This document shows, one piece after another, positions 3,601-59,651 of a stretch of DNA of 64,000 bases. The DNA is taken from assembly GCA_041910335.1 (NCBI GenBank), contig JAYRRF010000024.1, positions 18,529-82,528 of the forward strand. Direction: 5' to 3'. The position numbers and the translations under genes are program-made. The notes below the pieces were generated by a model, which saw only the letters and a list, made by a program, of their open reading frames with translations, was not told where the DNA came from and searched no databases. Within the stretch, counting starts at the first letter, position 1. Each line of letters starts with the position of its first letter. This stretch comes from Candidatus Moraniibacteriota bacterium (GTDB lineage: Bacteria; Patescibacteriota; Minisyncoccia; Moranbacterales; UBA1568).

Positions 3601-3706
3601 TCTGGGTAGGAGACAAATAATAGGAGTAAACTCCTTGACAAACTCTATAGACAGTGTATGATTTGAAGGTTTTGGGGAAGGCCTCAGAACATTGGGAGGG
3701 TACTTT

Positions 3707-4132
3707 ATGAATACCAGGAAAGCTCAGTCGCAACAGCGACTGCTCATCGGCTTCAGCCTGCTCCTCATCATGATCTGTGCATCTTGCACGGCTTCCATGG
3801 TGAAAGCTGAGCCGGTGCGATCAGCAACTTTTTTGCCTTACTATGCCGCTGAGGTACACAATGCTTCGGGGCAGGCACGCGAGCTCGTTCTGCGTGTCAC
3901 CGATGGGCAAGAAGTTGTCCAGATGCATCTCGATGCCTATGAGGCCAAGCCGCTCTATGTCCACCGGACGAAGGTGCCTTGCTCATCAGCACTCGAAGTG
4001 TCGCTTGATGGGGGGCGTACCTATCAGCGACTTCGGGGCAATCTCTGTCTCAGGAATGAGGCAGGCGATCCCCAAGTGCTCTACATCGATGGAAGAGGCG
4101 GTATCATGCTTCTTCATGTAGACGTCGACTAA
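3707..4132 (+). CDS. Small secreted hypothetical protein (signal peptide) on a high-GC islet
   Basis: GGGAGG RBS lies 7 nt before the ATG at 3707. N-terminus is hydrophobic (LLIGFSLLLIMICASCTASMVKA). Local GC is clearly above the flanks. Confidence 0.55.
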   Translation: MNTRKAQSQQRLLIGFSLLLIMICASCTASMVKAEPVRSATFLPYYAAEVHNASGQARELVLRVTDGQEVVQMHLDAYEAKPLYVHRTKVPCSSALEVSLDGGRTYQRLRGNLCLRNEAGDPQVLYIDGRGGIMLLHVDVD

Positions 4133-4166
4133 GAACGACGCTACGACAATATAGTTGACTTACAGT

Positions 4167-4207
4167 CCCGGTGCTACCAACGTGTGGTGCCGGGATCAGT
4201 TTTTTTC
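4167..4207. terminator. Bidirectional terminator between convergent genes
   Basis: CCCGGTGC/GTGCCGGG stem with two G-U pairs and a 12-nt loop, followed by a T7 run. On the other strand it sits at the 3' end of the minus gene 4196..4708. Confidence 0.55.
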
Positions 4208-4708
4208 TTTGATGGATTTGATTTCTGTTAGGAGTTCGGCTAGCATGCTCTCAATTCTATCAATACGCTCAACTTCTTCAGCGTGTTCTTTAGCATCTTC
4301 TTGGTCATCCTCTTCGATTTCTTCGGAGAGCTCCTCGACATCATCAGCCAACTCTTCAACATCATCAGAAATTTCCTCCACGTCTTCATGGAGCTCATCA
4401 ATATCTTTAGAAATTTCCTCCATTTCCTCAGAAATATCTTCGACATCCTCACTCACCTCAGCAATGATCTCACCCTGTTTATTGACGGTCATTTGGATAA
4501 AGATAGAGAGGTAGATAGCTTCTAGAGAAACGACGGTGGTTAAGATGAGAAGGATATTTTCGAAGCTGAAGCCGATAAGATACAGAGCAAAAATACCCAC
4601 AAAGAAGACTGTGTGGAAAATAAGTGACGGGATAGAGCCAATAGTACGCGTCGCACCAAAAGCGAGCTTTTCCGCCGTAGGGGCCGATAGAGTGGATTTT
4701 TTACCCAT
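4196..4708 (-). CDS. DUF1003-like membrane protein with a C-terminal acidic repeat tail
   Basis: Two TM segments, with FENILLILTTVVSLEAIYLSIFIQMTVNKQ resembling the DUF1003 core. The tail carries 8 or more repeats of (D/E)VEEIS-like units. Confidence 0.6.
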   Translation of the reverse strand: MGKKSTLSAPTAEKLAFGATRTIGSIPSLIFHTVFFVGIFALYLIGFSFENILLILTTVVSLEAIYLSIFIQMTVNKQGEIIAEVSEDVEDISEEMEEISKDIDELHEDVEEISDDVEELADDVEELSEEIEEDDQEDAKEHAEEVERIDRIESMLAELLTEIKSIKEKN

Positions 4709-4756
4709 ATAGACCTATTGTACCTGAGTTTGAGACAGAGAACAAAGGGGTGTGGT

Positions 4757-18503: not shown

Positions 18504-18635
18504 CTTCTTAATAACAAAAAACAGTCCTTCTTTCGAGGGTTGTTTTTTTATCTTGATAACGCTATACTGATCAGTTCCTTAATAACTGCATAAAATCAGA
18601 TTGATTGAGAGAAATCCAGCAAAAGGACCGAAATC

Positions 18636-19397
18636 ATGGAACAGACACCAATTGAGGAAGCTGGCTCACCTCAAGCGGTGAGACCATGGACAGTAATGGG
18701 AATTCAGAAGTTAGTCGCCACATATTTCGGGGTAGAAGTCCTCGATCTCAAATCAAAGGCTCGAAGGAGAGCCGTCTCTCATCCCAGGCAGGTAGCTGTC
18801 TATCTCATCAAAAAGTTCTTTGGTGAGCGCTATAGCTATCCATGGATCGGGGGTAGGTTTGGCGGACGGGACCACTCGACGATGATTCATGCTTACCGAT
18901 GCATTGAAGAAGGGATCGGCAAGAATCCCACTTTGCATCATGACGTCATGACTTTGTGGCACCGCATCACTTTGCAAGGTCCGCCACAAGATGGTGTGGA
19001 TTTCGTGATAGAGCCGAAGGTCAGGCAAGAAAAGAGAGAACCTGATTTTCCTCAAGTAGTGGCAGTGAAAGTACCTGAATTACCAAGGCCAAAGCCCGTC
19101 TTGGCAAGCGCGGAGGTTCGCAGGGTAGTAGCTGATCACTACAGCGTAGAGATACGCTATCTTGAGGACATTCATGATGACGAATACTATCGGTTTTGTC
19201 GAGAAGTGCTGATATTCTTGCTCCAGTACCTCGAGCGACAAGGAGTTGTCATCGGGCATGACCAGTTCTGTGGCACAGAAGAAGAAAGGAGAAAGACCTA
19301 CCGGTACATCCACGGAGTATCGAGAGGAGACAGAGAAATTCGATCCGATATTGAAAGTATCTTGGCGACGCTGGACAAGCTCTCCATCATCCCATGA
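18636..19397 (+). CDS. Standalone DnaA C-terminal (domain IV, DnaA-box-binding HTH) protein with no AAA+ domain; second half looks like a degenerate repeat of the same domain
   Basis: Residues about 20-95 (IQKLVATYFGVEVLDLKSKARRRAVSHPRQVAVYLIKKF...IGGRFGGRDHSTMIHAYRCIEEG) match DnaA domain IV closely. The C-terminal stretch VRRVVADHYSVEIRYLEDI reiterates the start of that domain. GC is elevated. Confidence 0.7.
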   Translation: MEQTPIEEAGSPQAVRPWTVMGIQKLVATYFGVEVLDLKSKARRRAVSHPRQVAVYLIKKFFGERYSYPWIGGRFGGRDHSTMIHAYRCIEEGIGKNPTLHHDVMTLWHRITLQGPPQDGVDFVIEPKVRQEKREPDFPQVVAVKVPELPRPKPVLASAEVRRVVADHYSVEIRYLEDIHDDEYYRFCREVLIFLLQYLERQGVVIGHDQFCGTEEERRKTYRYIHGVSRGDREIRSDIESILATLDKLSIIP

Positions 19398-19422
19398 TAT
19401 TTCAGGTGCTTCAGTGAAGCGA

Positions 19423-19453
19423 TGGCAGCCCACCTCAAGAGGCTGCCTTTTTG
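19423..19453 (+). terminator. Rho-independent terminator
   Basis: GGCAGCC-cacctcaaga-GGCTGCC followed by TTTTT. Confidence 0.75.
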
Positions 19454-19471
19454 TTTCCCAAAATCAGAGTT

Positions 19472-19502
19472 TTCTACTTGGAGATCGAATCTCCAAGTAG
19501 AA
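19472..19502. repeat. Perfect 14-bp inverted repeat with 3-nt spacer (TTCTACTTGGAGAT-cga-ATCTCCAAGTAGAA)
   Basis: Verified by reading: the two arms are exact reverse complements and no T-run follows. It lies in the intergenic DNA after the DnaA-domain gene. Confidence 0.7.
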
Positions 19503-19614
19503 GTGAAGAGATGGCTGGAGATTGACGGGAGAAGGATTTTGCTTTAGGGTGAAGGCAAGAAGGAGGAGGGTGACACCCTCCTTTGCTGTTTAACAAAAGA
19601 AAGGACGCCTTGTC

Positions 19615-20517
19615 ATGGACATGATAGCGCATGCATCAACTGGTGCTTCCTCGCATGACCCTGACCAGGTCATCATCAAGCTCCAATATGAACAGGATGC
19701 CAAGTTGTATTGGCGACCAGAAGACTTGATTTATCACTTCGAGTATGACCTTCGAGATTTGTTTCATCGAGCTGGCCTTCGGGGAGTTCTCGAAGTCAAG
19801 CGTATCGGTCGTCGTGAACGTGGTATCGGCCAAGAGGGCATCGCCCTTGGTCACCCGCAGGATTTCGTCATCGAAATCAATGCCGAGTACGGTCAGCAGA
19901 ATAAGGGAAGGGCTGACGTTTGGTTCATCAAGGTGGACGCCAAGGATACGACTCCGATTCGGGAGCGTCTGACGCGCGCTTTGGCAGGAGAAAAACTTCC
20001 ATCAATACTCGAACCACCAGAAAAGCCTGAGTCGCAGCCGACTATTCCCGAAGAACCAGACGTGTCTACGGCTGATGTGCCGTGGCCTACGTTACCAGGG
20101 CAGGAAAGTTCTGTGAAGGAAGCTCTTTTTCGGCGAGATCCTCTGGGAATGACCTATTGCCTCGTGTTTTTGTGGGGTAGCGCTAACGCTGACAACCAGG
20201 TAGAAAGGGGCGTACTGACCAATATCGCCATGGAGTACTATCCAGAATTTCAGGATAAGCGCAAAACAACACCCATCCACAAGTCGTTTGGTCAAGAAGG
20301 CTTCCTCAGTCGCCTAGAAAGTGGCAACTACCAGCTTTTCCTTGAGCCCATCAAAGCCTTTGTATCAGAACATCACGATGCACTCATAGCATCACCGATG
20401 TTCTGGAAGAAAATCAAAAAGGTTGAAGGGCTTTCCCAGGGTAACCAAGGGAGGATGGCAACGCAGGAGGCGCTACGGGCAATTGAGCGCATCTATGATT
20501 TGATTTTGGAGAAATAA
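19615..20517 (+). CDS. Hypothetical protein (300 aa), high-GC island
   Basis: Long ORF with protein-like composition and no recognisable motif. A strong terminator follows. Confidence 0.5.
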   Translation: MDMIAHASTGASSHDPDQVIIKLQYEQDAKLYWRPEDLIYHFEYDLRDLFHRAGLRGVLEVKRIGRRERGIGQEGIALGHPQDFVIEINAEYGQQNKGRADVWFIKVDAKDTTPIRERLTRALAGEKLPSILEPPEKPESQPTIPEEPDVSTADVPWPTLPGQESSVKEALFRRDPLGMTYCLVFLWGSANADNQVERGVLTNIAMEYYPEFQDKRKTTPIHKSFGQEGFLSRLESGNYQLFLEPIKAFVSEHHDALIASPMFWKKIKKVEGLSQGNQGRMATQEALRAIERIYDLILEK

Positions 20518-20546
20518 ATAACATCCCAAATGGGATAAGGGCTGGA

Positions 20547-20582
20547 GGGCGGGACATCGAACCACGATGACCCGCCCTTTTT
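20547..20582 (+). terminator. Strong Rho-independent terminator (13-bp stem with one mismatch)
   Basis: GGGCGGGACATCG-aacca-CGATGACCCGCCC followed by TTTTT. Confidence 0.8.
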
Positions 20583-20672
20583 GCTTTTGTAAAAATATAT
20601 ACCAAAAGAGAAGAGCCGCTATCCGAATAGGACAGCGGCTCATTCTGTGGATCATTGATCCTGTTGGCTGGT

Positions 20673-21146
20673 TTAGCCCGAACATTCGTAGGACTTGCCA
20701 TCGTGTTCGGCAGCGGCCTCGTAACCGCGCCAGAGGTAGACGATCTGCGGTGAGCAGTCGTTACGCAGGCGATGGTCGCCAAGAGCCTTGCGGCGCTCAG
20801 CGAAGTCCTTGTGGTCGCGGGCGCTCTGTTCGAACGTGCCCCAGTCGTTATCGACCGTGAGTCTGTCGAAGACCTCCGGCCAGGCAGCTTTCACCACTCT
20901 TCGCCGTTCGGCAAAGATGGCCGCCTTTTCGTTCTCTGGGCAGAAAGTACCGCAAGCCACGAACTTGCGGAAGTTCCTTTCCACAGCCGGGTCTCGGCGT
21001 ACCAGCTCGCTGGCTAGGCTGCCGATGCGATCATCCATTATTCCCAAGCGGCTTCCGGGATAAACCCAGCTGCAGCCATTGGGCAGGATGATCAGGGTGA
21101 ATAGCAACAAGGCCGCTATTCCCAGGCTCAAGAGTACTTTCTTCAC
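20673..21146 (-). CDS. Secreted/membrane-anchored Cys-containing hypothetical protein, paralog of 40217..40762
   Basis: GTG start at 21146 with an AGGAGA RBS 7 nt upstream. Signal-peptide-like MKKVLLSLGIAALLLFTLIIL. Shares WP(E/L)VFDRL and RLRN(D/H)C blocks with the protein at 40217..40762. High GC. Confidence 0.55.
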   Translation of the reverse strand: MKKVLLSLGIAALLLFTLIILPNGCSWVYPGSRLGIMDDRIGSLASELVRRDPAVERNFRKFVACGTFCPENEKAAIFAERRRVVKAAWPEVFDRLTVDNDWGTFEQSARDHKDFAERRKALGDHRLRNDCSPQIVYLWRGYEAAAEHDGKSYECSG

Positions 21147-21201
21147 GCGCAATCTCCTCTGAAATGGCGTGAATAGTGTAGCACTCTTTTGAAAAAAGTC
21201 A

Positions 21202-21780
21202 ATGGACACCAAGAAGCACATTAAGAAGCAGTCGTCTCTCAAGAGGCAGCTTCAGCAGCTTGGCAAGTCAGTCGATGGTGTGGAGGAGGCTTACCGCCAA
21301 ATCCGCGAAGTGGCTGATCTTCACCATCATGCCAAGTCTGGTGGCTACGAAAAAGCACTGGGCCGAGCAGGTACCGCTATCCGCAGTGCCCGTGAGGTGG
21401 TGGAACATGAAGATGCTGGTGTCAACGCTCGAGGTATGATCACTCGGGCAAACAATGCCAAGACCGACGCCGTCAGCATGGCGCATCAGCCGAAGCCTGA
21501 CTGGATCGGTGCCATGATGACGCTTGATGCAGTAAGCGAGCTTGCTCGCCAAGCACAGGCCGAGGCAGAGCGTGATATCGGTTCAGCCGAAGAAGCTCGT
21601 CAAAGAGCAGCTCGCCGTCGTCGCGATGAAGAAGATCGTCGTCGCCGACAACGGGACGATGATTCTTCCGATGACGGATACGGTGGAGGCAGATCTTCGT
21701 CGTCCAATTCTTCAGGAGGCGTTTTTGGCGGTTTCGGCGGGGGCAACTCTGGTGGTGGTGGCGCTACCGGTAGCTGGTAG
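21202..21780 (+). CDS. Hypothetical protein with Arg/Asp-rich and Gly/Ser-rich C-terminal tail
   Basis: ORF in the high-GC island. C-terminus reads RRRRDEEDRRRRQRDDDSSDDGYGGGRSSSSNSSGGVFGGFGGGNSGGGGATGSW. A long hairpin terminator follows. Confidence 0.45.
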   Translation: MDTKKHIKKQSSLKRQLQQLGKSVDGVEEAYRQIREVADLHHHAKSGGYEKALGRAGTAIRSAREVVEHEDAGVNARGMITRANNAKTDAVSMAHQPKPDWIGAMMTLDAVSELARQAQAEAERDIGSAEEARQRAARRRRDEEDRRRRQRDDDSSDDGYGGGRSSSSNSSGGVFGGFGGGNSGGGGATGSW

Positions 21781-21815
21781 GCTCGACCCTCTAGTCGAGT
21801 AAATGTGTGTACCTT

Positions 21816-21856
21816 GGGGAGGTGGCTTCAGCTGAAGCTACCTCCCTCTCTTTTTA
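21816..21856 (+). terminator. Rho-independent terminator (long palindromic stem)
   Basis: GGGAGGTGGCTTCAG/CTGAAGCTACCTCCC followed by TCTCTTTTT. Confidence 0.75.
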
Positions 21857-21866
21857 TCCGGAGGCA

Positions 21867-21901
21867 TACTTTTTGCTTTTGTAGAGGGGAAAGAGTAGAA
21901 T
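21867..21901 (+). promoter_or_regulatory. Copy 1 of a 35-nt duplicated promoter element (TTGCTT-17-TAGAAT) upstream of the DUF3800 gene
   Basis: TACTTTTTGCTTTTGTAGAGGGGAAAGAGTAGAAT. -35 TTGCTT at 21873-21878 and -10 TAGAAT at 21896-21901. ATG at 21909, so the transcript would be near-leaderless. Confidence 0.6.
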
Positions 21902-21908
21902 TTTAGGT

Positions 21909-22553
21909 ATGAATACACCACAATCAACAAAACAATTAGTATTTATTGATGATTCGGGTGATCCTGGCTTTAAGTTGGAACAGGGTTCTACGAGCCACTT
22001 TGTAATAGCATGCGTGATTTTTGATGATACTTTAGATGCTGAGGAAGCAGCCTTGATAATAAAAAAGTATAGGCGCGAGCTTGGCTGGTCTGACCAGCGA
22101 GAGTTTAAGTTTAACAAAACAAATAAAAAGCTGATCAAAGAGCTTTTAGAAAGATTGCAAGGCGTAGGTTTTCGGGTGAGGGCAATTTGTATTGATAAAA
22201 AAAGAATCTATAGTCATGAGCTCAAAAATAAGCAAGACTCTTTCTATAACTACGCTATCAAGGAAGTTTTGGAAAAAACAAAAACTCTCAGTCATGCTAG
22301 CGTAAAGCTCGATGGGCATTCTGGACGTACCTACAAAAAATCAGCCATCACTTATTTGCGGAGAGAGGTAAATAAAAAATCATCAAAAATAGCGAAGGTA
22401 AAGTTTGTCCATTCTCATTCAGATGTGCTTATTCAGCTCGCTGACCTAGTAGCAGGAGCTATACTGAGATCTACTCAAGAGACTAAAACTGACCATAAAG
22501 ACTACCTTCAAATTATCCAAAAAAAAGTAGAAGATGTTTGGTATTTTGGATAA
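21909..22553 (+). CDS. DUF3800-family protein
   Basis: N-terminal LVFIDDSGDPGF motif characteristic of DUF3800. Low GC. Confidence 0.6.
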   Translation: MNTPQSTKQLVFIDDSGDPGFKLEQGSTSHFVIACVIFDDTLDAEEAALIIKKYRRELGWSDQREFKFNKTNKKLIKELLERLQGVGFRVRAICIDKKRIYSHELKNKQDSFYNYAIKEVLEKTKTLSHASVKLDGHSGRTYKKSAITYLRREVNKKSSKIAKVKFVHSHSDVLIQLADLVAGAILRSTQETKTDHKDYLQIIQKKVEDVWYFG

Positions 22554-22679
22554 AATCAAAACCGACTCCTATCCTAGATGTCCTAGGCACGCACACCATA
22601 CGGTGACAGTTCAGAGCCGGTTTCATTTGTACTGGAATTATAGCATCTGAAGGGTTTTTGTCAAGGTACCAAGAAACGG

Positions 22680-22714
22680 TACTTTTTGCTTTTGTAGAGG
22701 GGAAAGGGTAGAAT
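22680..22714 (+). promoter_or_regulatory. Copy 2 of the 35-nt duplicated promoter element (TTGCTT-17-TAGAAT) upstream of the PLD-SNF2 gene
   Basis: TACTTTTTGCTTTTGTAGAGGGGAAAGGGTAGAAT, 34/35 identical to copy 1. -35 at 22686-22691, -10 at 22709-22714. ATG at 22743. Confidence 0.6.
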
Positions 22715-22742
22715 AGGGGTATATTTTCCTAATTTTAGACTC

Positions 22743-25700
22743 ATGTCTTACTCTAAGATTATTGACAATAAAAGGGTGTCCTTGAAGGATGTTCTTTTAG
22801 ACGTATCGAAAAACTTTTCTGAACTCTCAATTGCCACTGGTTATTGGGATATTGAGGGCATGAGGTTGGTTCTGAATTCAATAAAGGAGTATAAAAAAGT
22901 CCGTATCCTTATAGGAAGAGAGCCTTTACTGAAGAGAGATAATAAGACCGGTATCGATCAACCTGAACCAGACTATCCAGATCAGGATTTTTTTGAAGAT
23001 CTTCAAAGAATCAGCCCTTCTTCGGAATTAAAGCAAGTTGTTATAGCGTTGAAAAAACTGATCGACAACGGTCAGTTAGAGGTAAAAGTATATCGCAGGT
23101 CATTTTTACATGCAAAATGCTACATTTTTGGAAATTATGAGTCAACGGAAGCAGTAGGAATCATTGGTTCTTCGAATTTTACTAGAAATGGCATGACCTC
23201 TAACTCTGAATTAAATTCACTCGAATCAGATCATCGAGTAGTTGCATTTAGACCACAGACTGAACAGCAAGAAGTTGGACATTTATATTGGTTCGATAAT
23301 CTTTGGGATGATGCACTGACGGAGGATTGGACAGGAAAATTTATCGAATTAGTACGTACCTCACCACATGGTGATCTTTTGAATAGTCCTCGTGATATGT
23401 ATTTACGTACACTCTATGAGCTTTATCGTCATGAAATTGAACAGGAAGAGGAGGACATTATTAATCCTACCTCGAAAAAACTTTTTGAATTTCAAGAAAA
23501 AAATGTCAAAAATTTAAAGAGAATTTTAGATACTTACGGAGTTGCCATGCTAGCTGATTCGGTAGGGCTTGGTAAAACTATTTCTGCAATGGGCGTGATT
23601 AAACAATATAAAAATCAACGCGTAGTTGTTATTGCACCAAAAACGCTTGGTCAACAATGGGAGCAAGAGTTAGCTCAAGAGGATCTTCATAATGTCCGGG
23701 TTGTTTCTTTACAAAACAGACAAGAGATTGAAGAGCAGATAAATATTGATCAGTACAGCTCACCAGCACTCTTTGTGATTGATGAATCTCATAACCTCCG
23801 ATCCAACAATGGAACACGTTATGAATTGATTTCAGATTGGATTTCGAGCTCGTACAATGAAGAATCACATGTGCTGCTTTGTACAGCTACCCCAATCAAT
23901 AACTCGCTTACTGATCTTACGAGTCAAATTCTTCTTGGCGCACGTGGAGATCAGGATATTTTTACTTTGGCCGTTAAGACATACGGAGGACAAGTGGTGA
24001 CGAGGTCTTTTTATGAAGCCATTGATAATATAAGAAAACGTATTCAGCAAGATATTGCTCAGGGAGGAGAGAACTTAGAAGAAATTTATTTGGAGGCTCG
24101 TATTACCTTGGAGCCTATTATTCGTAATTTTGTAGTACGCAATACTCGTCAAAGTATCGGTTCATTGATTTCAGAGAATGGTGATGTACAAAATTTCCCA
24201 GAAGTAAAGATCAACAACACTAAATATCAGCCAGTACAGGTGCCACTTACCATCAGTGAACGACATCAGAAAATAACAAGTCATTCTATTGAGCAATTAG
24301 CTGATACGATGGATCGACTTAAGCATCCTATGCGTCAGATTGATGATCTTGATGTTGAGGGTGTTGCTCCCGAAAATGCAAACTCAATTTATCGTATATA
24401 CCAGCTGATTCTTGGGCTCTCGTTTGTGCCGTATCGGTGGTATATGTATGACTTTAGGCTTTATGATAAGACGAGAGATGAGTTGAGAAATATGCGCTTG
24501 TCTGGCTCCGACCTGATGAAAATCAATATGCAATTGAGCCTTTATGGAATCATGAGAACGCTTTTCTTGAAGCGCTTAGAATCATCAGCGTATGCTCTGG
24601 AAGTTTCATTGAAACGATACTTAAATCGATTGCAAGTATTTGAGCAGATTCTTCGTGATGAAAATATAATTATCAACCTCTCCGAAGTTGCCGATATCTT
24701 AGATGAGTATTCTCCAGATGACGGAGACCAGATTACTTATTCGACAGAGGAATTGTTGGAAAAGGCTCGCAAAAATCCAGAAGAAGTAGATAAGAATTTT
24801 AATAAGACAGTGCTACTTGAAGATATCCATATAGAGAAAGATCTTATCTCTGAAATCATTGGTCTTGTGGCTACCATAAAATCTACAGATCCAAAAATTA
24901 AAGATTTAAAGAGAAAATTAAAGGATTCGTATAGAGAAGATCCAGCCAAAAAGATACTCATCTTTACTTTTTTTGCTGACACTATAGATTACATTGAAAA
25001 AGAATTAGGGACTGATCCTGATATGAAGGAAGTTTTTAATCAGTCAGCTTTTGTTTCAGGAAGGGACAGAAGGCATGCTCTGCACTGTGCAAATCGTTTT
25101 GCTCCAGAAGCCAAGGGCGCGCAAAGTCTCGTAGCAGAAGAAGGTGAAATTACTTATCTTTTTGCTACAGATGTTCTTTCGGAAGGTCAAAACTTGCAAG
25201 ATTGTGGAGAGATTATCAATTATGATCTTCACTGGAATCCGGTGCGCATGGTACAGCGCAATGGTCGTATCAATCGATTGGGTACCAAACATGAAACAGT
25301 GTGGGTTGATAATTTTGTGCCAGGTGATGATCTGGAGCTCTTTTTGGGTATCATGGATCGATTAAACAAAAAGATTGAATTGATTAAACATGCTATAGGA
25401 AATGACTCTTCTATTTTTGGAGAAACTATAGATGCACGTAGCTACACAGATCTTTATAGTGATGATGCAAATAGAGCCTCGATTGCTTATGATCAACTTG
25501 AGACAAGTATAGACGCCTTTTCTGACGATATCTTTTTGAAAGATCTTAAGCACTTTCTAAAAAAAGCTACAGATGAAGAAATTCGTCAAATGAAGCGTAT
25601 CCCGTATGGATCATGGGGGATTGTACCTCAAGGTCTTACTGATCCCAATGATGTGATTCTGTTTTCCAAATTAGCGTATACAAACGGGATTACAAAAAAT

Positions 25701-29287: not shown

Positions 29288-29291
29288 TGTC

Positions 29292-40218: not shown

Positions 40219-40762
40219 AGTTGCAGCGATAGCCCTGCTCGCGGTTGAGGCGATAGTAGGGCATATGGCTTTGGGGGTCGGTATAGAACTCGATGATCGG
40301 AACGCAGTGATTGCGCAGTCGGTCGGCACCAAGATGCCGAATGGAGCGAAAAAATCGATCATGAGCATCCTGAGCCTTGAGCTCTCGTTTGCTTGGGTCA
40401 CTTGATGGCTTGAGCCAGTCTTGACCACCGTCATTGACGAGACGGTCGAAAACAAGTGGCCACTCCTTACGAATTGTTTCATCACGATGTTTCATGATGA
40501 GCCTGAGTCGTTCAGAGTCTTCGCAAATCGGTGAAGCCATGCAGCGCTTGAAATCTTCGAAAGAAGCTGAGAGGCTTGGTGAGCGGCGCATGAATTCGCC
40601 GCTGACCGCCTCGATACTTTCTTCGTAGAGTCCAAGTTTGCTCCAGGGGTTGAGCGCCCGCGGGTTGCCCCCAGCGAGCTGGAAGAGGAAAAGACTGACA
40701 TAGTATACAGCCACTAGTAGCGAGACGCCCCACAGGAGGCGCTTGAGATGATTGTGAGTCAC
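40217..40762 (-). CDS. Membrane-anchored/secreted Cys-containing hypothetical protein, paralog of 20673..21146
   Basis: N-terminal anchor LLWGVSLLVAVYYVSLFLF. Shares KEWPLVFDRLVND and ADRLRNHC blocks with the 20.7-kb copy. High GC. Confidence 0.6.
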   Translation of the reverse strand: MTHNHLKRLLWGVSLLVAVYYVSLFLFQLAGGNPRALNPWSKLGLYEESIEAVSGEFMRRSPSLSASFEDFKRCMASPICEDSERLRLIMKHRDETIRKEWPLVFDRLVNDGGQDWLKPSSDPSKRELKAQDAHDRFFRSIRHLGADRLRNHCVPIIEFYTDPQSHMPYYRLNREQGYRCN

Positions 40763-40815
40763 CGTAGGTCTCCTTTAGACGGAAAAGAACAGATGTCTAG
40801 GATACAAGATGACAA

Positions 40816-41325
40816 ATGAAAAATCAAGAACCGTGGCTTGACGGAAGGATATCTCTAGGTATAGGATGTCTGAGCATACCAAGAGTATGCTTTTGTGTGG
40901 AAGGATATTTGATGTCGAAATCAGTTTCAGTACGAGGTGATCATGCTTCTCGGCGATGCAAAAGGGGGCCAGCAAGTAAGCCTCAGGGCAGGGCGGAAGG
41001 TGTCCCCGAACATGATATCCTTGTTCTGGCACGGGGTACGCCAGCTCGCAGGGTCATTGAGGGCGTATTGTCTGGCGCAACCGCTTCCAAGAGTGGTCAC
41101 AGGGCATCAACCGTCATTCTGATGGAGGCTCGCGGTGAAGAAATTCGCCCAGCGGCCCGCAGGGTATTTCCGATTTCGTTTGCCGATGCTGCGCGTATGC
41201 TCAGTCACGAGAAGAATCTCTCGGGCGGAGCGGATGACTTCGGCTTCTTCGAAATCGTGGATGCCAAGGCGGGTCTAATTCGCCAGGTTCCTTCGGAACA
41301 GGTCGTCGAGCTGGTTCGTGCCTAG
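40816..41325 (+). CDS. Hypothetical protein, high-GC islet
   Basis: ORF in a high-GC segment with no motif. The true start may be the internal ATG at about 40912. Confidence 0.4.
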   Translation: MKNQEPWLDGRISLGIGCLSIPRVCFCVEGYLMSKSVSVRGDHASRRCKRGPASKPQGRAEGVPEHDILVLARGTPARRVIEGVLSGATASKSGHRASTVILMEARGEEIRPAARRVFPISFADAARMLSHEKNLSGGADDFGFFEIVDAKAGLIRQVPSEQVVELVRA

Positions 41326-41410
41326 ATAAGGCACTACCCGATCAGAGACAATGATGATGTGGGGCGGATTCGAGATTCTCGGGTCCGCCTCAAACACTTT
41401 TTATAAAGAA

Positions 41411-41449
41411 TTTTCGTCACTTGACGAAAATAAAAAGACGTGTTAATAT
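41411..41449 (+). promoter_or_regulatory. Consensus-like sigma70 promoter (TTGACG-17-TAATAT) with a 9-bp-arm palindrome (TTTTCGTCA-ct-TGACGAAAA) overlapping the -35
   Basis: -35 at 41421-41426, -10 at 41444-41449. Palindrome at 41411-41430. GAAGGGGA RBS lies before the ATG at 41508. Confidence 0.65.
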
Positions 41450-41507
41450 GTAGGCGCCTGAATTTCTTGGGCAACTGTTTTTGATAGATAGAAGGGGACC
41501 GCATCAA

Positions 41508-41915
41508 ATGAGTCATGGAAAACCGTCCGCGCAGGTCTTGCGGGCACAGACGGTCCGGGTCGCCCTCGACGAAGTCGAGGATGATCGTCAGGAAAGGATG
41601 AGATGGTGGCGGCAGGATGGCAAACATCGTGACGTGCCAGCTCTGCTCAACCACGGATTCCCGTTCGGATTGACCGAAGCGGATCGAGGGCTGATTTTGC
41701 CCAATGAGGTGGAGATGGCACAGGCCACGCTCCGCCAAATGTTGGATCAAGGTCCACGTGAACATTTAGGTGTTCGCTACGAAGATGTTGATATCCACCC
41801 GGAAAGCCGCTTGATCAATCCGGATCATAACCAGGCAAGCCTGTTCCTCTTTTGCGAGCGTGAAGGATGGTACCAGGTTACGTCGGATTCACCTATTTTC
41901 GATCGGGCCGCCTAA
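41508..41915 (+). CDS. Hypothetical protein (135 aa), high GC, with its own strong promoter and terminator
   Basis: RBS and ATG at 41508. The promoter above and a hairpin+T5 terminator at 41955-41991 bracket it. Confidence 0.55.
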   Translation: MSHGKPSAQVLRAQTVRVALDEVEDDRQERMRWWRQDGKHRDVPALLNHGFPFGLTEADRGLILPNEVEMAQATLRQMLDQGPREHLGVRYEDVDIHPESRLINPDHNQASLFLFCEREGWYQVTSDSPIFDRAA

Positions 41916-41954
41916 GGGCGCCTGATTTACCCGATAATACGGGAACAGTAAAGA

Positions 41955-41991
41955 GCGGCAGATCACCGAACCTGGAGATCCGCCGCTTTTT
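41955..41991 (+). terminator. Rho-independent terminator
   Basis: GCGGCAGATC...GAGATCCGCCGC stem followed by TTTTT. Confidence 0.7.
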
Positions 41992-42006
41992 CGCATCCAA
42001 AGAAAA

Positions 42007-44620: not shown

Positions 44621-47416
44621 ATGGCAGATAAAAAAACAGTCATTGAAGTGCGAGGCGCACGAGTGAATAACCTGAAGAATATCGATGTTGATATTCCGCG
44701 CGACGCATTGGTGGTCGTCACCGGTCTTTCTGGTTCGGGCAAATCATCACTGGCTTTTGATACTCTTTTTGCGGAAGCGAATCGACGCTATGTCGAGTCG
44801 CTTTCTTCATATGCACGTAATTTTCTTGATGGTTTTGAGAAACCGGATGTAGACACTATTCACAATCTTTCTCCAGCTATCTCTATTGATCAGAAGAGTG
44901 TTTCTCGTAGTCCGCGTTCTACTGTAGGCACGATGACGGAAGTCTATGATTACCTTCGTGTACTCTACGCCAAACTCGGTGAGCCACATTGTCCAAATTG
45001 TAGTGCGAAATTGAGTCGTCGAAGTGTTCGAGAGATTCTTGAGGAGATTCTGTTGTTACCGAATGACACCGCTCTAGTGTTTACTACGGAGAGTTTTGCT
45101 TTGCGTGGCAAGAATGAAAAAGATGCTCTGCAGATGATTCAGACCTGGGGGTATCCTCGAGTGATGAAGGACGGTGAAGTTCTTGGAATTGCTGAAGCAG
45201 CGATGACTGCCAAGGGAGATCAAGAACACCGCTATGAGCTCGTGATTGATCGTATGACACTCAACACGGCTCGTCCTGATAAGGAGCGTATCATCGACAA
45301 CCTTCAGACAGGTTTTCAGTTAGGTCATGGGACGCAAGCGGTAATCATTGGAGAAGACGGTGAGAAGCGTCACTACAATGAAGAATATCGTTGTGACAGT
45401 TGTGATATCTATCTCCCAGAGTTTTCACCGAGCCATTTTTCTTTCAATAATCCAGAAGGGGCTTGTCAGAAGTGTTCGGGTCTTGGCGTGACCCTTGCCT
45501 TTGATCCAGAACTGATTATTCCTAATAAGAATCTTTCTTTTCTTGAAGGAGCTGTACGGCCATGGAGCAAGATGAATAGTGGTCGTGAGAACGGACATGG
45601 GCCTCTCGCTCAGCTTTTGGATGCCTTGAAGCGTCTTCGTATTGGAGCAAGCACTCCAGTCAAAAAACTCTCCAAGAAACAGCTTGATATTATTTTCTTC
45701 GGTGAGGAGAAAGAGGGTGGCTTTGAGGGAATTATTTCTCTTTTGGAGCGTAAGTACAAAGAGACGAAATCAGAACATCTGCGAGGCGATATCGAAGCTT
45801 ACATGCATACGCAGGTATGTGATAGTTGTCAGGGTAAGCGACTCAAGAAGGAGTCTCTCTCAGTGTTGCTTCAGGGGCTGTCAATCGATGATATTGCTTG
45901 TCAAAGTATCGATAAGTTATTGATCACATTACCTACACTGGAAAAGAAGCTTGTCACCAACAAGGAAAACAAGGCATTCGTAGAGCCCCTTTTTCGTGAG
46001 ATGTTCACTCGTTTACGTGCAGTAGAGAAGGTCGGCCTAGGTTACTTGGAGATACGTCGTGGAGCTCACACGCTTTCTGGTGGAGAGGCTCAGCGTATCC
46101 GTCTTTCTGTGCAAATGAAGTCAGGTCTCTCAGGTATCATCTATGTCCTGGACGAACCCTCAGTTGGGCTTCATAGTCGTGATACTGAGAAACTCTTAGG
46201 GGCTCTCGAGGATTTACGTGGTGCCAATAACTCTCTGGTAGTCGTAGAGCATGATGTAGCTATCATGAAACGAGCTGATTATATTATCGATATGGGGCCT
46301 GGAGCAGGGAGTGAGGGAGGCGAAGTCATTTTTGCTGGGACACCTTCTGCACTCCTCAAATCAAAGATGCTCACTGCGGAGTACCTCAATGGTAAACGCA
46401 GCGTCTCCGAGAAGAAGAAGCTTCGCAAGGGGACTGGTAAGAGTCTTTCTATTATCGGTGCGAAAGAACACAATCTTCAGAACGTTGATGTGAGCATTCC
46501 TCTCGGTATGTTGGTCTCAGTAGTAGGAGTGTCTGGATCGGGTAAGTCATCCCTTGTCCACAGTATTCTTTCAAAAGCTCTCTCGAAACACTTCTACCAT
46601 GCCAAGGCAGAGCCAGGCGCTCACAAGAAAATCACCGGCTTAGAGAACATCGATAAAGTCATCACTGTCAATCAAGATCCAATTGGACGAACACCTCGCA
46701 GTAACGCAGCGACCTACACAGGAGTCTTTGGTCTTATTCGCGATGTTTTTGCAGCGACGCCTGATGCAGAGAAAGAGAAATTCAGCGCTAGTCACTTCAG
46801 TTTCAATATGCGTGGTGGACGCTGTGAAGAGTGTCAGGGAGGGGGAATGAAGAAAATAGAGATGTATCTCTTACCCGATGTATATGTACCTTGTGAGTAT
46901 TGCCAGGGCACTCGCTACAACCAGAAAACGCTTTCCATTGAGTACCGAGGGGTAAACATTTCTCAAATTCTCCAAATGACCGTGACAGAAGCGAGAAGAT
47001 TTTTCCTTGATCAACCAATGATTGAGGAGAAGCTCCGCGTGCTTGAAGAGGTGGGCCTTGGCTATCTTGTCTTGGGTCAGAGCGCTACCAATCTCTCCGG
47101 AGGTGAAGCTCAGCGTATCAAGCTCGCTACTGAATTGGCGCGTAAGTCTACTGGAAAGACTCTTTATATTCTCGATGAGCCGACTATCGGACTGCACTTC
47201 GAAGATGTGAGAAGACTCCTTGAAGTATTAGATGTTCTTGTAGACAAGGGGAATAGCGTCTTGGTAGTAGAGCATAATATCGATGTCGTCAAAGCATCAG
47301 ACTGGGTGATAGAGCTTGGGCCAGACGGTGGACAGGCTGGAGGAGAGCTGGTGTTTTCTGGTACACCTACGAAACTGAAGGCTGTTAAGAAAAGCTTCAC
47401 CGCTAAATACCTCTAG
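44621..47416 (+). CDS. uvrA: Excinuclease ABC subunit A (canonical, 931 aa, with insertion domain)
   Basis: [34 protein letters not shown], two LSGGEAQRI signatures, and a full insertion domain of about 110 aa between CQKCSGLG and CDSCQGKRL. Confidence 0.95.
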
Positions 47417-57197: not shown

Positions 57198-57745
57198 TCA
57201 ATCGGTATGTCATTGGAATAGTAGGTGGGCCAGGAACTGGCAAAGACACGATAGCAAGACTCTTACCGGAAGTGGTAGGTGAGTCAGTCGAGGTGTTATC
57301 TTTTAGTCGTCTCATTATTGATGAGTACTGTAAGCCGCTTGGTATTGAGCCAACTCATACCAATCTCCAGTTTATCGGTAATGCTATCCGTCCGGAGTGG
57401 ATTCATGAGCGTATCTATCAGAAGATAGAGCAGTCGAATGCTAAATACTTTGTCATTCCTTCCATTCGTCGAGAGGGGGATTTTCTTTTTGTACGGAGTT
57501 TTCCAAAGCATCTTCTTATCGCTGTAGAGACTGAGGGGCGGATAGCTTATGAGCGCATGAAACAGCGTAATGAGAAGCCTAATGAAGATAAATTGACCTG
57601 GGAAGAATACTTAGTGCTTTGCAATGCTCCAATTGACCAGGAAGTGCCGAAACTGAGGAAACAAGCAGACGCAACCTTAGAGAATAATGGCACGGTAGAG
57701 GAGCTCAAAGAAAAACTTAAGCAGATATTTAGTGAAGTTGCATGA
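57194..57745 (+). CDS. P-loop kinase-like protein (dNMP/adenylate/dephospho-CoA kinase-like fold)
   Basis: Walker A IGIVGGPGTGKDT. Small size, about 180 aa. Confidence 0.5.
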   Translation: MINRYVIGIVGGPGTGKDTIARLLPEVVGESVEVLSFSRLIIDEYCKPLGIEPTHTNLQFIGNAIRPEWIHERIYQKIEQSNAKYFVIPSIRREGDFLFVRSFPKHLLIAVETEGRIAYERMKQRNEKPNEDKLTWEEYLVLCNAPIDQEVPKLRKQADATLENNGTVEELKEKLKQIFSEVA

Positions 57746-58890
57746 GTAAGTATTTCATCAAAACTTTTGGCTGTCAGCAGAATGTGGCTGATAGTGAGCG
57801 ACTTGCGAGTTACTATGAGGCTCGAGGCATGACTCCAGGTACAGGCCAGGAAGACTGTGATGTTCTTATCTTGAATACCTGTGTGATTCGAGATAAAGCC
57901 GAAGAGCGAGTCTATGGTCAAATGAAGAGTCTTAAAGAGAAGCTCGGAGATAAAATGCCACATGTGGTAGTGACTGGGTGTTTGGTGGGGAGTGCAGCAC
58001 GAGTACCTGGCGGCAAGATGATGAAGCGACTCAAGCACCGTCTACCTGACGCTGAGATTCTCCCACTCGAAGATATTGGTTTTGAACATGCACCGAAACG
58101 CAAGAGTGGCAAGGAAGCGAGTATTGTCATCTCCAATGGCTGTAATAACTTTTGTGCCTTTTGTATTGTACCTTTTGCGCGGGGCAAAGAAATATCACGT
58201 CCATATGCAGAAATCTTAGAAGAGGTGCAAGAGAGTATTAATAATGGATTTACTGAGATCATGCTCTTGGGTCAGAATGTTAACTCCTATGGGGCAGATC
58301 TCCTGATGGGCGCACTGAAGGACAAAGAAAAATATGAGCTACCGAGCGGTGAGCTCGTTGATCCTGTGATGGTGAAGCATCTGGGGCGTCACCGTATCCC
58401 AACATTGTTCACCTACCTCCTTCGTGATGTAGCAGAAATACCTGGGGTAGAGAAAGTCACTTTCCTCTCATCAAATCCTTGGGACTTCTCTGATGAGCTT
58501 ATTGAAGTGATGGCTACTCATAAGAACATCAATCGGGTTCTTCATCTACCGGTGCAGGCAGGGAGTAATACTGTTATCAAACGGATGAATCGTTGGTATA
58601 CCCGAGAAGAGTACCTTGATCTTGTCGCGAAGTTACGAAAAGCGATGCCAGATATCAAGATCACCACCGACATCATCGTTGGTTTTCCGGGGGAGACTAT
58701 CTCAGACTTTGAAGAAACCAAGAAGCTGGTCGAAGAGGTAGGATTTGTCCAGACCTTCATTGCCTGGTATTCACCGCGTCCTGGGACAGCAGCTACGAAA
58801 GGTATGGAAGATGATATACCAATAGAAGAGAAACAACGTCGTTTTCATGAGTTGGACGAGCTCGCGTATAAAGGTGAGAGCTATTATTAG
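57742..58890 (+). CDS. MiaB/RimO-family radical-SAM methylthiotransferase (short, no obvious TRAM domain)
   Basis: MTTase N-domain FIKTFGCQQNVADSERL. Radical SAM SNGCNNFCAFCIVPFARG. Confidence 0.8.
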   Translation: MSKYFIKTFGCQQNVADSERLASYYEARGMTPGTGQEDCDVLILNTCVIRDKAEERVYGQMKSLKEKLGDKMPHVVVTGCLVGSAARVPGGKMMKRLKHRLPDAEILPLEDIGFEHAPKRKSGKEASIVISNGCNNFCAFCIVPFARGKEISRPYAEILEEVQESINNGFTEIMLLGQNVNSYGADLLMGALKDKEKYELPSGELVDPVMVKHLGRHRIPTLFTYLLRDVAEIPGVEKVTFLSSNPWDFSDELIEVMATHKNINRVLHLPVQAGSNTVIKRMNRWYTREEYLDLVAKLRKAMPDIKITTDIIVGFPGETISDFEETKKLVEEVGFVQTFIAWYSPRPGTAATKGMEDDIPIEEKQRRFHELDELAYKGESYY

Positions 58891-58983
58891 ATTTTCCTAT
58901 TTTTGGAAATAAAAAACAGCCTTTCGGCTCAGTATTTTTGGTGGGTAGGAGGGAGTGCTGTTGCACACCCTCCTCCCAAGTTG

Positions 58984-59541
58984 TCAGTGGGCTGTCTCGA
59001 GACCCTTCCATTCCCGTTCTTCCCAGTTCCGGAACAAGCGTTCCAGGGGCGGGAGAGGATTCAGAGTGTATTCATCGCCGTCGATGATCACCTCGAGTCC
59101 TCCTCGGTCGCGAATGCCCACGACACCCGACCAGTAGCCATCACCGACCCTGGAGTGATCGATCATCATCTGGAACTTCCGGGGCACCAGCTTCGAAACG
59201 AAGTTGGATGCCCGACGATAGATGCCGCTCTCCCAACGATAGACACCGTATTCCCAGGAAGGAGGCTTCTTGTTCAGGCCGAGCATATTCGCCAGGCCCA
59301 GAGTGGACCAGCTGATCCATTTCCAGCGACGCATGCGCCGCGCGTAGAGCAGCTCGTACCGCCGGTGGTACTTCTGGTGCAGCTTGCGCCGGACCAGTTC
59401 TTCTTCATGGTAAGCAGTGTGCGCTTCCGTAAGGAAGGTATTGAGGTCCTGGCTCGACAGCGGCCAGGAGTAGCCGTGCTCGTGGGTCATGGCATGCAGG
59501 ATGCCAGCCATGATTTCGTTTTCGTAGCGGCCAAGGTGCAT
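58984..59541 (-). CDS. Hypothetical Trp/Tyr-rich protein on a high-GC islet
   Basis: ATG at 59541 with a GGAGAGAG RBS. A consensus promoter lies upstream. The opposite-strand ORF 58903..59607 is P/A/V-rich, typical of an antisense ORF in high-GC DNA. Confidence 0.5.
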   Translation of the reverse strand: MHLGRYENEIMAGILHAMTHEHGYSWPLSSQDLNTFLTEAHTAYHEEELVRRKLHQKYHRRYELLYARRMRRWKWISWSTLGLANMLGLNKKPPSWEYGVYRWESGIYRRASNFVSKLVPRKFQMMIDHSRVGDGYWSGVVGIRDRGGLEVIIDGDEYTLNPLPPLERLFRNWEEREWKGLETAH

Positions 59542-59622
59542 GACTCTCTCCGTATCGTGGGGGAGTGTGAGCTCCCAGTTAAACAACTTGTATCCAGTGC
59601 AGCTTAGCACCTTCAACTTTAC

Positions 59623-59651
59623 ATTATACACCTAAAACAATAAAAAGTCAA
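59623..59651 (-). promoter_or_regulatory. Consensus sigma70 promoter on the minus strand (TTGACT-17-TATAAT)
   Basis: Reverse complement of 59623-59651 reads TTGACTTTTTATTGTTTTAGGTGTATAAT. Confidence 0.6.

Follow-up and report, generated by a model that had tools for sequence, protein, structure and literature searches.

Five GC-rich patches in a mid-GC window

We examined 64 kb of a Candidatus Moraniibacteriota chromosome (contig JAYRRF010000024.1, positions 18,529 to 82,528 of the forward strand; this whole stretch of 64,000 nucleotides is called the window), which carries five GC-rich patches, here numbered islets 1 to 5. They sit between the genes for UvrA and a DUF948 protein (islet 1), an LCAT-like and a DUF3800 protein (islet 2), a Zn-ribbon and a DUF1294 protein (islet 3), PIF1 and UvrC (islet 4), and a MiaB-like protein and ExoIII (islet 5). 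The window as a whole has a GC content of 44.7%, and the GC fraction is 0.544 at 3692-4132, 0.520 at 18600-21800, 0.561 at 30950-31300, 0.527 at 40200-42000, and 0.578 at 58980-59600. In sliding windows, GC content was 54% at 3.7-4.2 kb, 54-55% at 19.75-21.9 kb, 53% at 30.95-32.4 kb, 52% at 40.1-41.95 kb, and 55-58% at 58.85-59.6 kb; it was merely 48-50% at 18.6-19.6 kb, and the segment from 18.6 to 20.5 kb is hardly raised (49-50% GC; GC content at third codon positions, GC3, 0.51-0.52; z ~1). The islet-3 patch runs past 31.3 kb through a transporter gene to 32.5 kb, with GC3 raised up to 33.5 kb. A contrasting low-GC block (35-37%), filled with defense genes, lies at 21.85-30.7 kb.

Under a first-order Markov null, 0.29 of the 1273 400-nt windows would be expected to reach 53% GC or more, whereas 64 did so, and the highest such window had a GC fraction of 0.6075, against a simulated maximum of 0.5475. 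Binomial z-scores for the named segments were 4-9, and GC3 z-scores reached 4.2. The GC mosaic is therefore real and moderate, amounting to +7 to +13 points. A sequence-only reading of this DNA had listed five GC-rich segments, which do stand out (52-58% versus 44.7%, far beyond a homogeneous null), and its spot values hold as well (63.3% GC at 59101-59160, 37% in the defense block at 21.9-30.4 kb, and 46% in uvrA). Its description of them as single-gene islets fits only the segments at 3.7-4.1 kb and 58.98-59.6 kb and fails for the other three: 18.6-21.8 kb contains four open reading frames (ORFs), a gene remnant among them, 40.2-42.0 kb contains three genes, and islet 3 comprises a DUF1153 gene and a major facilitator superfamily (MFS) gene. 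Rfam and tRNA scans of the whole window found no RNA gene in any GC-rich patch and no tRNA anywhere.

Gene content of the islets

Islet 5 consists of one gene (58984-59541, minus strand, with its ATG at 59541; GC, 58%; GC3, 0.74) for a 185-amino-acid ORFan (MHLGRYENEIMAG…). The public NCBI and Logan annotations instead carry an ORF on the plus strand (58987-59607, 206 amino acids, P0140) and leave the conserved minus-strand gene uncalled. Three homolog clusters were found for the minus-strand protein, all from Moranbacteria and all called on the equivalent strand. Compared with the related locus L003, the minus frame retains 59% amino acid identity and the plus frame 40%, and in locus L083 a stop falls inside the codon-aligned antisense frame. 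On these comparisons, the plus-strand ORF is a shadow ORF and the islet-5 gene lies on the minus strand; the shadow ORF is open because the gene lacks TTA, CTA and TCA codons. The AlphaFold model of the islet-5 protein (4 sequences; predicted local distance difference test score, pLDDT, 41) is not usable. A 5' leader of ~75 nt (59542-59622, minus strand) contains a predicted 5-bp hairpin (~59556-59571) that reads GGGAG…CTCCC in the window and AGGAG…CTCCT in L003 and L083, apparently a compensatory change.

Islet 4 contains three genes. The first (40217-40762, minus strand; GC, 54%; GC3, 0.59) encodes a 181-amino-acid protein that has four invariant cysteines and is anchored by a transmembrane segment at its N-terminus. 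It is followed by two plus-strand genes, one (40912-41325) for an Arg/Ala/Gly-rich ORFan of 137 amino acids, with a GC content of 57% that derives from first and second codon positions (GC1/GC2) and an ortholog at 32% identity in locus L094, and one (41508-41915; GC, 55%; GC3, 0.59) for a 135-amino-acid ORFan with an ortholog at 39% identity in locus L090.

The four-cysteine protein of islet 4 and the protein encoded by 20673-21146 in islet 2 are paralogs, 30% identical, and were the only islet pair found in an all-against-all BLASTP search of the ORFs of the window, the remaining hits being two UvrA paralogs and their shadow ORFs. A word-indexed homology search with 40217-40762 returned a near-identical sequence only; the family surfaced in an exhaustive profile search, as ~70 clusters (at 50% identity) among 1.84 billion proteins. 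Its members align as proteins (36 sequences) and share the N-terminal transmembrane anchor, the invariant cysteines, and the motifs EFMRRSP, WPxVFDRL, DWG and LRNxCVP. Orthologs of 40217-40762 occupy the same slot in two relatives, at 31% and 47% identity. The AlphaFold model has a pLDDT of 96, and a comparison of that model with the PDB gave no significant match. The predicted signal peptides and disulfide-type cysteines of the islet proteins point to the cell envelope.

Islet 3 contains a DUF1153 gene (30996-31268, minus strand; 90 amino acids; GC, 56%; GC3, 0.67; Pfam score, 56.1 bits versus a cut-off of 23.5; E value, 4e-15) and a gene for a DHA1-type MFS transporter (31340-32548, minus strand; 402 amino acids; GC, 52%; GC3, 0.62; C fraction at third positions, C3, 0.49). 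DUF1153 is the only domain in the islets that is associated with insertion sequences, and it is conserved in place: in two relatives, DUF1153 orthologs of 46% and 56% identity (GC, 59% and about 52%) adjoin the MFS gene, and matches on Paracoccus and Novosphingobium plasmids, at 31-38% identity, fall below these Moraniibacteriota orthologs. The transporter (MFS_1, 198 bits, residues 9-363) has homologs with the JGI names DHA1 or tetracycline-resistance-like, the closest of which all come from the candidate phyla radiation (CPR; 84-86% identity in Moranbacteria, 60-67% in other Paceibacteria), and it is a native CPR gene. Beside it, the genes for DUF1294 and DUF1761 membrane proteins (32656-33454, plus strand) have an ordinary GC content of 47-48%; since they show a raised GC3 (0.60-0.62) with a preference for C-ending codons, the anomaly of islet 3 reaches ~33.5 kb.

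Islet 2 is the most heterogeneous in content. Its first gene (18636-19397, plus strand), in a strain-specific segment and with a barely raised GC content of 49%, encodes a 253-amino-acid protein with the helix-turn-helix of DnaA domain IV (Bac_DnaA_C; Pfam E value, 2.1e-24; residues 23-89) and a weak PHROGs match to "replication initiation protein." We rejected its identification as DnaA, as the AAA+ domain was not detected and domain IV stands alone; a helix-turn-helix protein of the DnaA-box-binding type is the better description. The next gene (19615-20517, plus strand; GC, 50%) encodes a 300-amino-acid ORFan that forms a singleton cluster in a collection of 15 billion proteins and is followed by a hairpin (GGGCGGG…CCCGCCC) with a T-run at 20547-20585. 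On the minus strand, 20673-21146 (P0141; GC, 56%; GC3, 0.69) encodes the 157-amino-acid member of the four-cysteine family, which appears membrane anchored or lipoprotein-like. The last element (21181-21780, plus strand; GC, 57%) is a gene remnant: it represents the 3' part of a TPM/YgcG-like gene and has a tail rich in Gly (…GGGGATGSW). That gene measures 487 amino acids in a strain 97% identical to ours and 676 amino acids (TPM_phosphatase) in the related genome JAHBAT02 (loci compared include L093). Homology to the strain begins at 21199, and in the window 20673-21146 and its upstream genes have taken the place of the 5' remainder. Because the other strain has its 487-amino-acid TPM-like gene at this break, the 192-amino-acid ORF at 21202-21780 is, by alignment, the 3' third of such a gene, and 18.6-21.2 kb is strain specific.

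Islet 1, finally, holds one gene (3707-4132, plus strand; GC, 55%; GC3, 0.58) for a 141-amino-acid ORFan with a signal- or lipoprotein-like N-terminus (…LLLIMICASC…) and no match in Pfam, PHROGs or PADLOC. The shorter of the two UvrA paralogs precedes it (965-3553, plus strand, 862 amino acids); the longer (44621-47416, plus strand, 931 amino acids) is 46% identical to the shorter over ~510 residues and 89% identical to the UvrA of a relative.

Predicted promoters and terminators

The first 60 kb were scanned for consensus matches to sigma-70 promoters, scored out of 12. The three best matches lie upstream of islet 1 (3635-3662, plus strand, TTGACA-16-TATGAT, 11/12), upstream of islet 5 (59651-59623, minus strand, TTGACT-17-TATAAT, 11/12), and in the defense block (22664-22637, minus strand, 12/12). 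Likewise, the longest terminator stems per 20-kb block fall at islets, namely at 4165-4196, 20613-20641 (minus strand), 21816-21847 and 41360-41392. The first of these, with a 13-pair stem and a T-run, closes islet 1 and is shared with a convergent gene (4196-4708, minus strand). In islet 2, 20673-21146 has a promoter-like site at 21202-21175 (minus strand, TTGACT-16-TACACT, 9/12) and its terminator at 20641-20613, and a 14-pair terminator (21816-21847, plus strand) closes the islet at the border of the low-GC defense block. In islet 4, a 15-pair terminator (41360-41392, plus strand) follows 40912-41325, a promoter-like site with a TG element (41421-41449, plus strand, TTGACG-17-TAATAT, 9/12) precedes 41508-41915, and a hairpin with a T-run follows that gene (~41956-41995). 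The promoters of 20673-21146, 40912-41325 and 41508-41915 are thus weaker (9/12), and the terminators of these genes are strong. Islet 5 ends in a double-hairpin terminator (58909-58983, minus strand), GGGAGGAGGGTG…CACTCCCTCC followed by AGCC-GAAA-GGCT and a T-run, which would act bidirectionally with the MiaB-like gene.

The near-consensus promoters announced by the sequence-only reading are thus confirmed for 59651-59623, but the site at 41421 is of a kind found 29 times, against 27.5 in shuffled sequence; the strong terminators it described are there. Several of the patches are, by prediction, self-contained transcription units with host-type promoters and terminators. The 34-nt promoter module of islet 5 is 91-94% identical in loci L003 and L006, and the same pattern occurs exactly in L083 and L084, while the terminator module is kept at 78-83% in L003 and L006 and is also present in L083 and L007. 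As further copies of these modules, none was found elsewhere in the window, and in the fetched loci the promoter module occurred only between MiaB-like and ExoIII genes; a dispersed family of identical promoter-terminator sockets is therefore not supported, the islet-5 modules being single copy in the window.

Conservation and turnover in related genomes

Relatives of the MiaB-like gene come from Moraniibacteriota metagenome-assembled genomes (MAGs), which places the window in this group. In related genomes of 42% GC, the orthologs of islets 3, 4 and 5 have kept their positions and match the islets in GC-richness (GC3, 0.6-0.7). JAHBAT02 (locus L090; background, 42-43% GC) is collinear with the window from 42.5 to 21.2 kb. 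Its order is UvrC, four small ORFs of 49-59% GC, PIF1 and, further on, META, the MFS gene (49% GC) and DUF1153 (59% GC), continuing with a different defense set (32-36% GC), DUF3800 and the 676-amino-acid TPM protein (57% GC). In a third genome (loci L094 and L101), the slot of small ORFs between UvrC and PIF1 has 54-56% GC, and the MFS gene and an uncalled DUF1153 gene are followed by an island of type I restriction-modification (RM), KAP and Fic genes. The islet-5 orthologs in L003 and L083, again between MiaB-like and ExoIII genes, have 57% GC and a GC3 of 0.70-0.71. Islet genes share 31-65% amino acid identity with their orthologs, versus 67-92% for most flanking genes, and third-position identity at conserved codons of the flank genes (0.45-0.59) indicates saturated synonymous sites. 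Since orthologs are GC-rich despite this saturation, the GC-richness is no leftover of a recent import but is maintained or resupplied, and these comparisons point to islets 3, 4 and 5 as long resident.

Multiple recent acquisitions from high-GC donors, as the sequence-only reading had proposed, are accordingly unsupported for islets 3, 4 and 5, given their syntenic GC-rich orthologs and the exclusively CPR kin of the MFS gene; by that reading's own yardstick, this speaks for residence of long standing. The homology check it called for identified no donor lineage for any islet, and its broader notion of compositionally atypical accessory genes is borne out. Most islet proteins are ORFans, with matches confined to the Moraniibacteriota clade or to unnamed metagenome proteins, and a metagenome scan with a DUF2202 protein, aimed at relatives covering islets 1 and 2, gave two remote matches only. 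Its other suggestion, chimeric assembly, is excluded by independent assemblies for four of the five patches (islets 1, 3, 4 and 5). Islet 1 with both flanks (UvrA and DUF948) is identical in 10 contigs from at least six samples, and a Logan contig carries islet 5 with both neighbors. ENA and Logan contigs match 30609-32942 (islet 3 including its right edge) at 97% nucleotide identity and 39701-41425, covering the left (PIF1-side) boundary of islet 4, at 97-99%. Islets 3, 4 and 5 are arranged alike in other genomes, the gene order being shared by JAHBAT02 and by one contig each from Logan and JGI; 18.6-21.2 kb is known from the NCBI and Logan versions only.

Some of the slots do change content. 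Islets 3 and 4 were present in every relative examined, whereas islet 5 and 18.6-21.2 kb are sporadic. The spacer between the MiaB-like and ExoIII genes measures 846 nt in the window and 48-51 nt in L009 and L064, which lack islet 5 and whose ExoIII proteins are 92% and 83% identical to that of the window. In L006, the place of the islet-5 gene is taken by an unrelated lipoprotein ORF (GC, 55%; GC3, 0.66), flanked by a promoter and a terminator that match those of the window and L003 at 91-94% and 76-78% identity, respectively; the L007 slot has kept the double-hairpin terminator and holds an M50-like ORF of ordinary GC content. At this slot, the "native expression signals" of the sequence-only reading are thus conserved slot features around a replaceable ORF. 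The adjacent MiaB-like radical-SAM gene (57742-58890, plus strand) is ~70% identical to those of all relatives, whereas the genes flanking it on either side reach 85-92% identity with these genomes and L003 and L083 share 92% identity in this gene, which suggests that its allele may have been replaced from a more distant lineage.

At the strain level (97-99% nucleotide identity), homology ends at 21199, 30609 and 41425. The last of these lies inside a -35 hexamer, up to which the strain is 98.6% identical. We considered a site-specific mechanism acting at the TTGAC (-35) breakpoints 21199 and 41425 but hold the coincidence to be fortuitous, because the hexamer is placed differently at the two junctions and the swap in L006 breaks after the -10 element. 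Judged by alignment, only 18.6-21.2 kb and 41.43-41.95 kb behave as recent, strain-level differences.

Turnover is also evident in the low-GC defense block (21854-30608, plus strand; 35-37% GC), which encodes DUF3800, an HKD plus Snf2 helicase-nuclease, a type IIG restriction enzyme-methyltransferase (MTase; identified by PADLOC) and two ORFans. The 97%-identical strains carry a Bro-N gene instead. Between DUF3800/TPM and DUF1153/MFS (compared at L090, 11.6-20.0 kb; L101, 11.6-21.0 kb; and L087, 2339-3181), JAHBAT02 has a DEAD helicase, an N6_N4 MTase, Fic and HNH, and the third genome has a type I RM system, a KAP NTPase and Fic; all of this content is GC-poor in every genome compared. Just downstream of the DUF3800 gene and convergent with it lies a DUF3800-IX RNA (22555-22623, minus strand; Rfam RF02968; 65 bits; E value, 6e-12), the sole Rfam match in the window. 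The promoter facing it (22664-22637, TTGACA-16-TATAAT with an upstream TG) is the only perfect sigma-70 match in the scanned 60 kb. A 35-nt direct repeat, TACTTTTTGCTTTTGTAGAGGGGAAAGAGTAGAAT, occurs at 21867-21901 and 22680-22714 (97% alike), upstream of the DUF3800 and Snf2 genes, where it reads as a promoter (TTGCTT-17-TAGAAT); a weak third copy (30606-30640) coincides with the strain breakpoint at 30609.

None of the islet proteins matched a known defense family in PADLOC, scans of viral contigs with four of them found no relatives, and 9 of the 10 tested against PHROGs had no match, the exception being the weak one of the DnaA_C protein. Integrase and transposase domains were absent from the islet proteins, as were flanking direct repeats from the boundaries of islets 2 and 3.

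Codon usage and source of the GC rise

GC3 is 0.74 in the islet-5 gene, 0.69 in 20673-21146, 0.67 in DUF1153, 0.62 in the MFS gene, and 0.58-0.59 in 40217-40762, 41508-41915 and 3707-4132, compared with 0.44 ± 0.07 in 47 other genes. For 21202-21780 and 40912-41325, it is GC1/GC2 that is raised, owing to a Gly/Ala/Arg-rich protein composition. The cause of the GC elevation therefore differs from gene to gene. In six genes (20673-21146, DUF1153, MFS, DUF1294, DUF1761 and islet 5), most of the GC3 excess is due to C3: these genes have a C/(C+T) of 0.62-0.78 at Phe, Tyr, His, Asn, Asp and Ile codons, versus 0.22-0.57 in the other genes, while G/(A+G) shows no change for Lys, Glu and Gln and the codons GAG and GCG are not enriched. 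This NNC preference was not seen in the plus-strand islet genes 3707-4132, 40912-41325 and 41508-41915. The islet proteins contain more Arg, Gly and Ala and less Lys, Asn and Thr, with GC-type codons such as CGC, GGC and CTC in their genes. Neither a simple GC-rich donor nor translational selection alone accounts for both the C3 shift and the amino acid shift.

Among 80 Patescibacteria loci, accessory ORFs were more often compositional outliers than conserved ORFs, mainly on the AT side. Since accessory ORFs deviate mostly in that direction, GC-rich slots would be peculiar to the Moraniibacteriota clade studied.

Possible origins of the islets

We favor, with moderate confidence, the explanation that the GC-rich patches are accessory expression slots of the Moraniibacteriota chromosome, resembling phage morons in having conserved positions and replaceable, fast-evolving cargo. 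They are small genes or short clusters wedged between conserved housekeeping genes, most with their own predicted promoter and hairpin terminator, and the cargo consists mostly of small proteins; several of these have conserved cysteines and an N-terminus of the signal, lipoprotein or transmembrane type. Slot contents evolve several times faster than the flanks and are now and then replaced, as seen in presence or absence, in the unrelated ORF that shares its promoter and terminator with the islet-5 slot, and in strain breakpoints at promoters. We propose that the conserved flanks and regulatory modules allow the contents to be swapped by homologous recombination, and that exchange probably draws on an accessory gene pool internal to Patescibacteria that includes members with 55-60% GC. 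Such a donor pool, together with the Arg/Gly/Ala-rich composition and the preference for C-ending codons, could keep the slots above genomic GC. The low-GC defense block next to islets 2 and 3 would reflect the same turnover with the opposite compositional sign. An exchange of slots within Patescibacteria fits published data: in 125 Patescibacteria genomes, horizontal gene transfer (HGT) accounted for up to 13% of genome length, and single-gene transfers occurred mostly between Patescibacteria (PMC12455944).

Several observations weigh against this explanation. No GC-rich donor carrying any islet gene was found, so that exchange with a pool is our inference, and rapid divergence in situ without exchange would yield the same low identities. 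The outliers among accessory ORFs in the 80 loci were 12.5% GC-poor and 4.6% GC-rich, and the gap that separates MiaB-like from ExoIII genes in more distant relatives has a lower GC content than the genome; GC-richness as a peculiarity of this clade does not follow from the slot model. The C3-specific codon shift is unlike the imprint of a generally GC-rich donor. Furthermore, the comparison with relatives covers islets 3, 4 and 5, with islets 1 and 2 outside it.

Of the alternatives, codon selection fares best, although we consider it unlikely. The islets would then be native genes whose high GC3 is kept by selection, strongly transcribed small genes favoring NNC over NNU. The concentration of the excess in C3 in the six genes, with an unchanged A/G choice at Lys, Glu and Gln codons, is what such selection would leave; besides, two islets hold the best sigma-70 matches among protein-coding genes of the first 60 kb, and GC3 stays at 0.70-0.74 across the islet-5 orthologs despite synonymous saturation. 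However, three plus-strand islet genes show no NNC preference, the pilin-like genes at 49818 and 51203, whose products are presumably abundant, have low NNC use (0.32-0.33), and the amino acid composition is shifted too. The C3-rich genes also lie mostly on the minus strand in a window with a positive GC skew, so that part of the C-over-G excess is strand skew. Translational selection is usually weak in organisms that, like the CPR, grow slowly and carry few genes for tRNA and rRNA.

Rather less likely still, in our estimation, is a stronger version of the slot idea, in which the clade maintains fixed "expression sockets" between housekeeping genes, each made up of a resident near-consensus promoter and a bidirectional terminator, into which unrelated small ORFs are swapped while an ongoing force holds the GC content of the cargo high. 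That force might be selection for codons ending in C or a biased gene conversion that accompanies swapping, and it would have to hold the cargo above the genome by 10-15 GC points and by up to 30 GC3 points, even with synonymous sites saturated. If true, this would mean cassette exchange without an integrase and a GC-richness that is locally maintained, not inherited, in a CPR genome.

That the islets are recent acquisitions from high-GC donors outside the CPR (e.g., Alphaproteobacteria or Actinobacteria), not yet ameliorated, strikes us as improbable. The Arg/Gly/Ala-rich, Lys/Asn-poor proteins and the CGC, GGC and CTC codons would suit such donors, as would the DUF1153 matches on Paracoccus and Novosphingobium plasmids and the absence of 18.6-21.2 kb from the 97%-identical strain; in islet 5, parsimony counts 42 synonymous changes from GC to AT versus 26 from AT to GC, a weak signal drawn from nonindependent, saturated sites. 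Set against this, two or three related genomes carry equally GC-rich orthologs at the same positions with saturated synonymous sites, the MFS kin are all from the CPR, and DUF1153 is nearer to Moraniibacteriota proteins than to any plasmid match. Moreover, no non-CPR homologs of the ORFans were found, nor any integrase, tRNA or flanking repeat, and the G-ending codons GAG and GCG are not enriched. For islets 3, 4 and 5, such recent import is largely refuted.

Slightly less probable again is GC-biased gene conversion, raising GC3 locally at slots that recombine often with diverged alleles. Recombination has left its marks in the cargo swap, the strain breakpoints and the 70%-identical MiaB-like allele, and high GC3 persists at saturation; yet the defense block is equally recombinogenic and GC-poor, and the replaced MiaB-like gene has an ordinary GC3 of 0.45. 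In bacteria, the reported effects of GC-biased conversion are far smaller than 25-30 GC3 points.

It is very improbable that the GC-rich stretches are structured noncoding RNAs and their ORFs artifacts. Islet 5 is open on both strands, with gene callers disagreeing on the strand, and strong promoters and terminators are present; but there is no Rfam family or tRNA in any islet, the islet-5 minus frame is the better conserved, with its antisense counterpart interrupted in L083, the four-cysteine family aligns as protein and folds confidently in silico, and 40912-41325 and 41508-41915 have protein-level orthologs. These comparisons refute this possibility for the annotated domains as well as for islets 4 and 5, the islet-1 ORF alone being without diverged homologs. 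Finally, we give practically no credence to a misassembly or binning chimera joining the DNA of a higher-GC organism to a mid-GC genome, as the abrupt compositional steps and the metagenomic origin of the 86,183-nt contig might suggest, since assemblies from other samples span islets 1 and 5, the islet-3 segment and the PIF1-side boundary of islet 4, and JAHBAT02 and the Logan and JGI contigs have the same gene order.

Comparison with known systems and implications

The nearest parallel to the proposed slots is the phage "moron," reportedly described by Juhala and Hendrix for the lambdoid phages HK97 and HK022. Both are extra genes with their own promoter and terminator and a base composition unlike that of their neighbors. 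Morons are inserted between genes that are adjacent in relatives, which islet 5 fits (given the 48-51-nt spacer of L009 and L064), and islets 1 and 5 each combine a single ORF with an 11/12 promoter and a hairpin plus T-run terminator, these signals being consensus matches only. Unlike morons, the islets lie on a bacterial chromosome between housekeeping genes, with no phage genes nearby and no viral-contig matches, and the islet-5 slot retains its promoter and terminator while the ORF is replaced. With the genomic islands of Patescibacteria (PMC12455944), the slots have in common accessory DNA of atypical composition at hot spots, a predominance of transfers inside Patescibacteria and, in the adjacent low-GC block, restriction-modification and defense cargo. 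They differ in being tiny (0.5-3 kb) and without integrases, tRNA targets or flanking repeats; the GC-rich slots are also conserved in position and composition, so that most are not recent. As in a classical genomic island, the islets share deviant composition and codon usage, but they come without mobility genes, a tRNA site or an identifiable donor. Defense islands and hypervariable hot spots likewise have variable content in fixed flanks, here three different defense systems bounded by DUF3800/TPM and DUF1153/MFS and, in the slot next to the MiaB-like gene and ExoIII, cargo of three kinds; most such loci are AT-rich, however, whereas the slot cargo is GC-rich and has no match to known defense families. 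Integron cassettes, too, are small, mostly single-ORF units swapped at a fixed place with a resident promoter, but no integrase domain and no attC-like repeats or repeated imperfect inverted repeats at the cassette ends were found here.

These findings change no major picture; they provide a well-documented case of an ordinary genome mosaic, with the persistently high GC3 as one open question. Atypical GC content is routinely taken as a sign of recent HGT or contamination, and MAG-cleaning tools discard such DNA. GC-rich patches of a CPR genome that are authentic, old and GC-rich across relatives mean that composition alone misleads both the inference of HGT and the curation of bins. The four-cysteine family offers a confidently predicted fold without a solved counterpart, and the fast-evolving, small, putative envelope proteins carried in the slots are candidates for a role in the cell-surface interactions of episymbiotic CPR bacteria.

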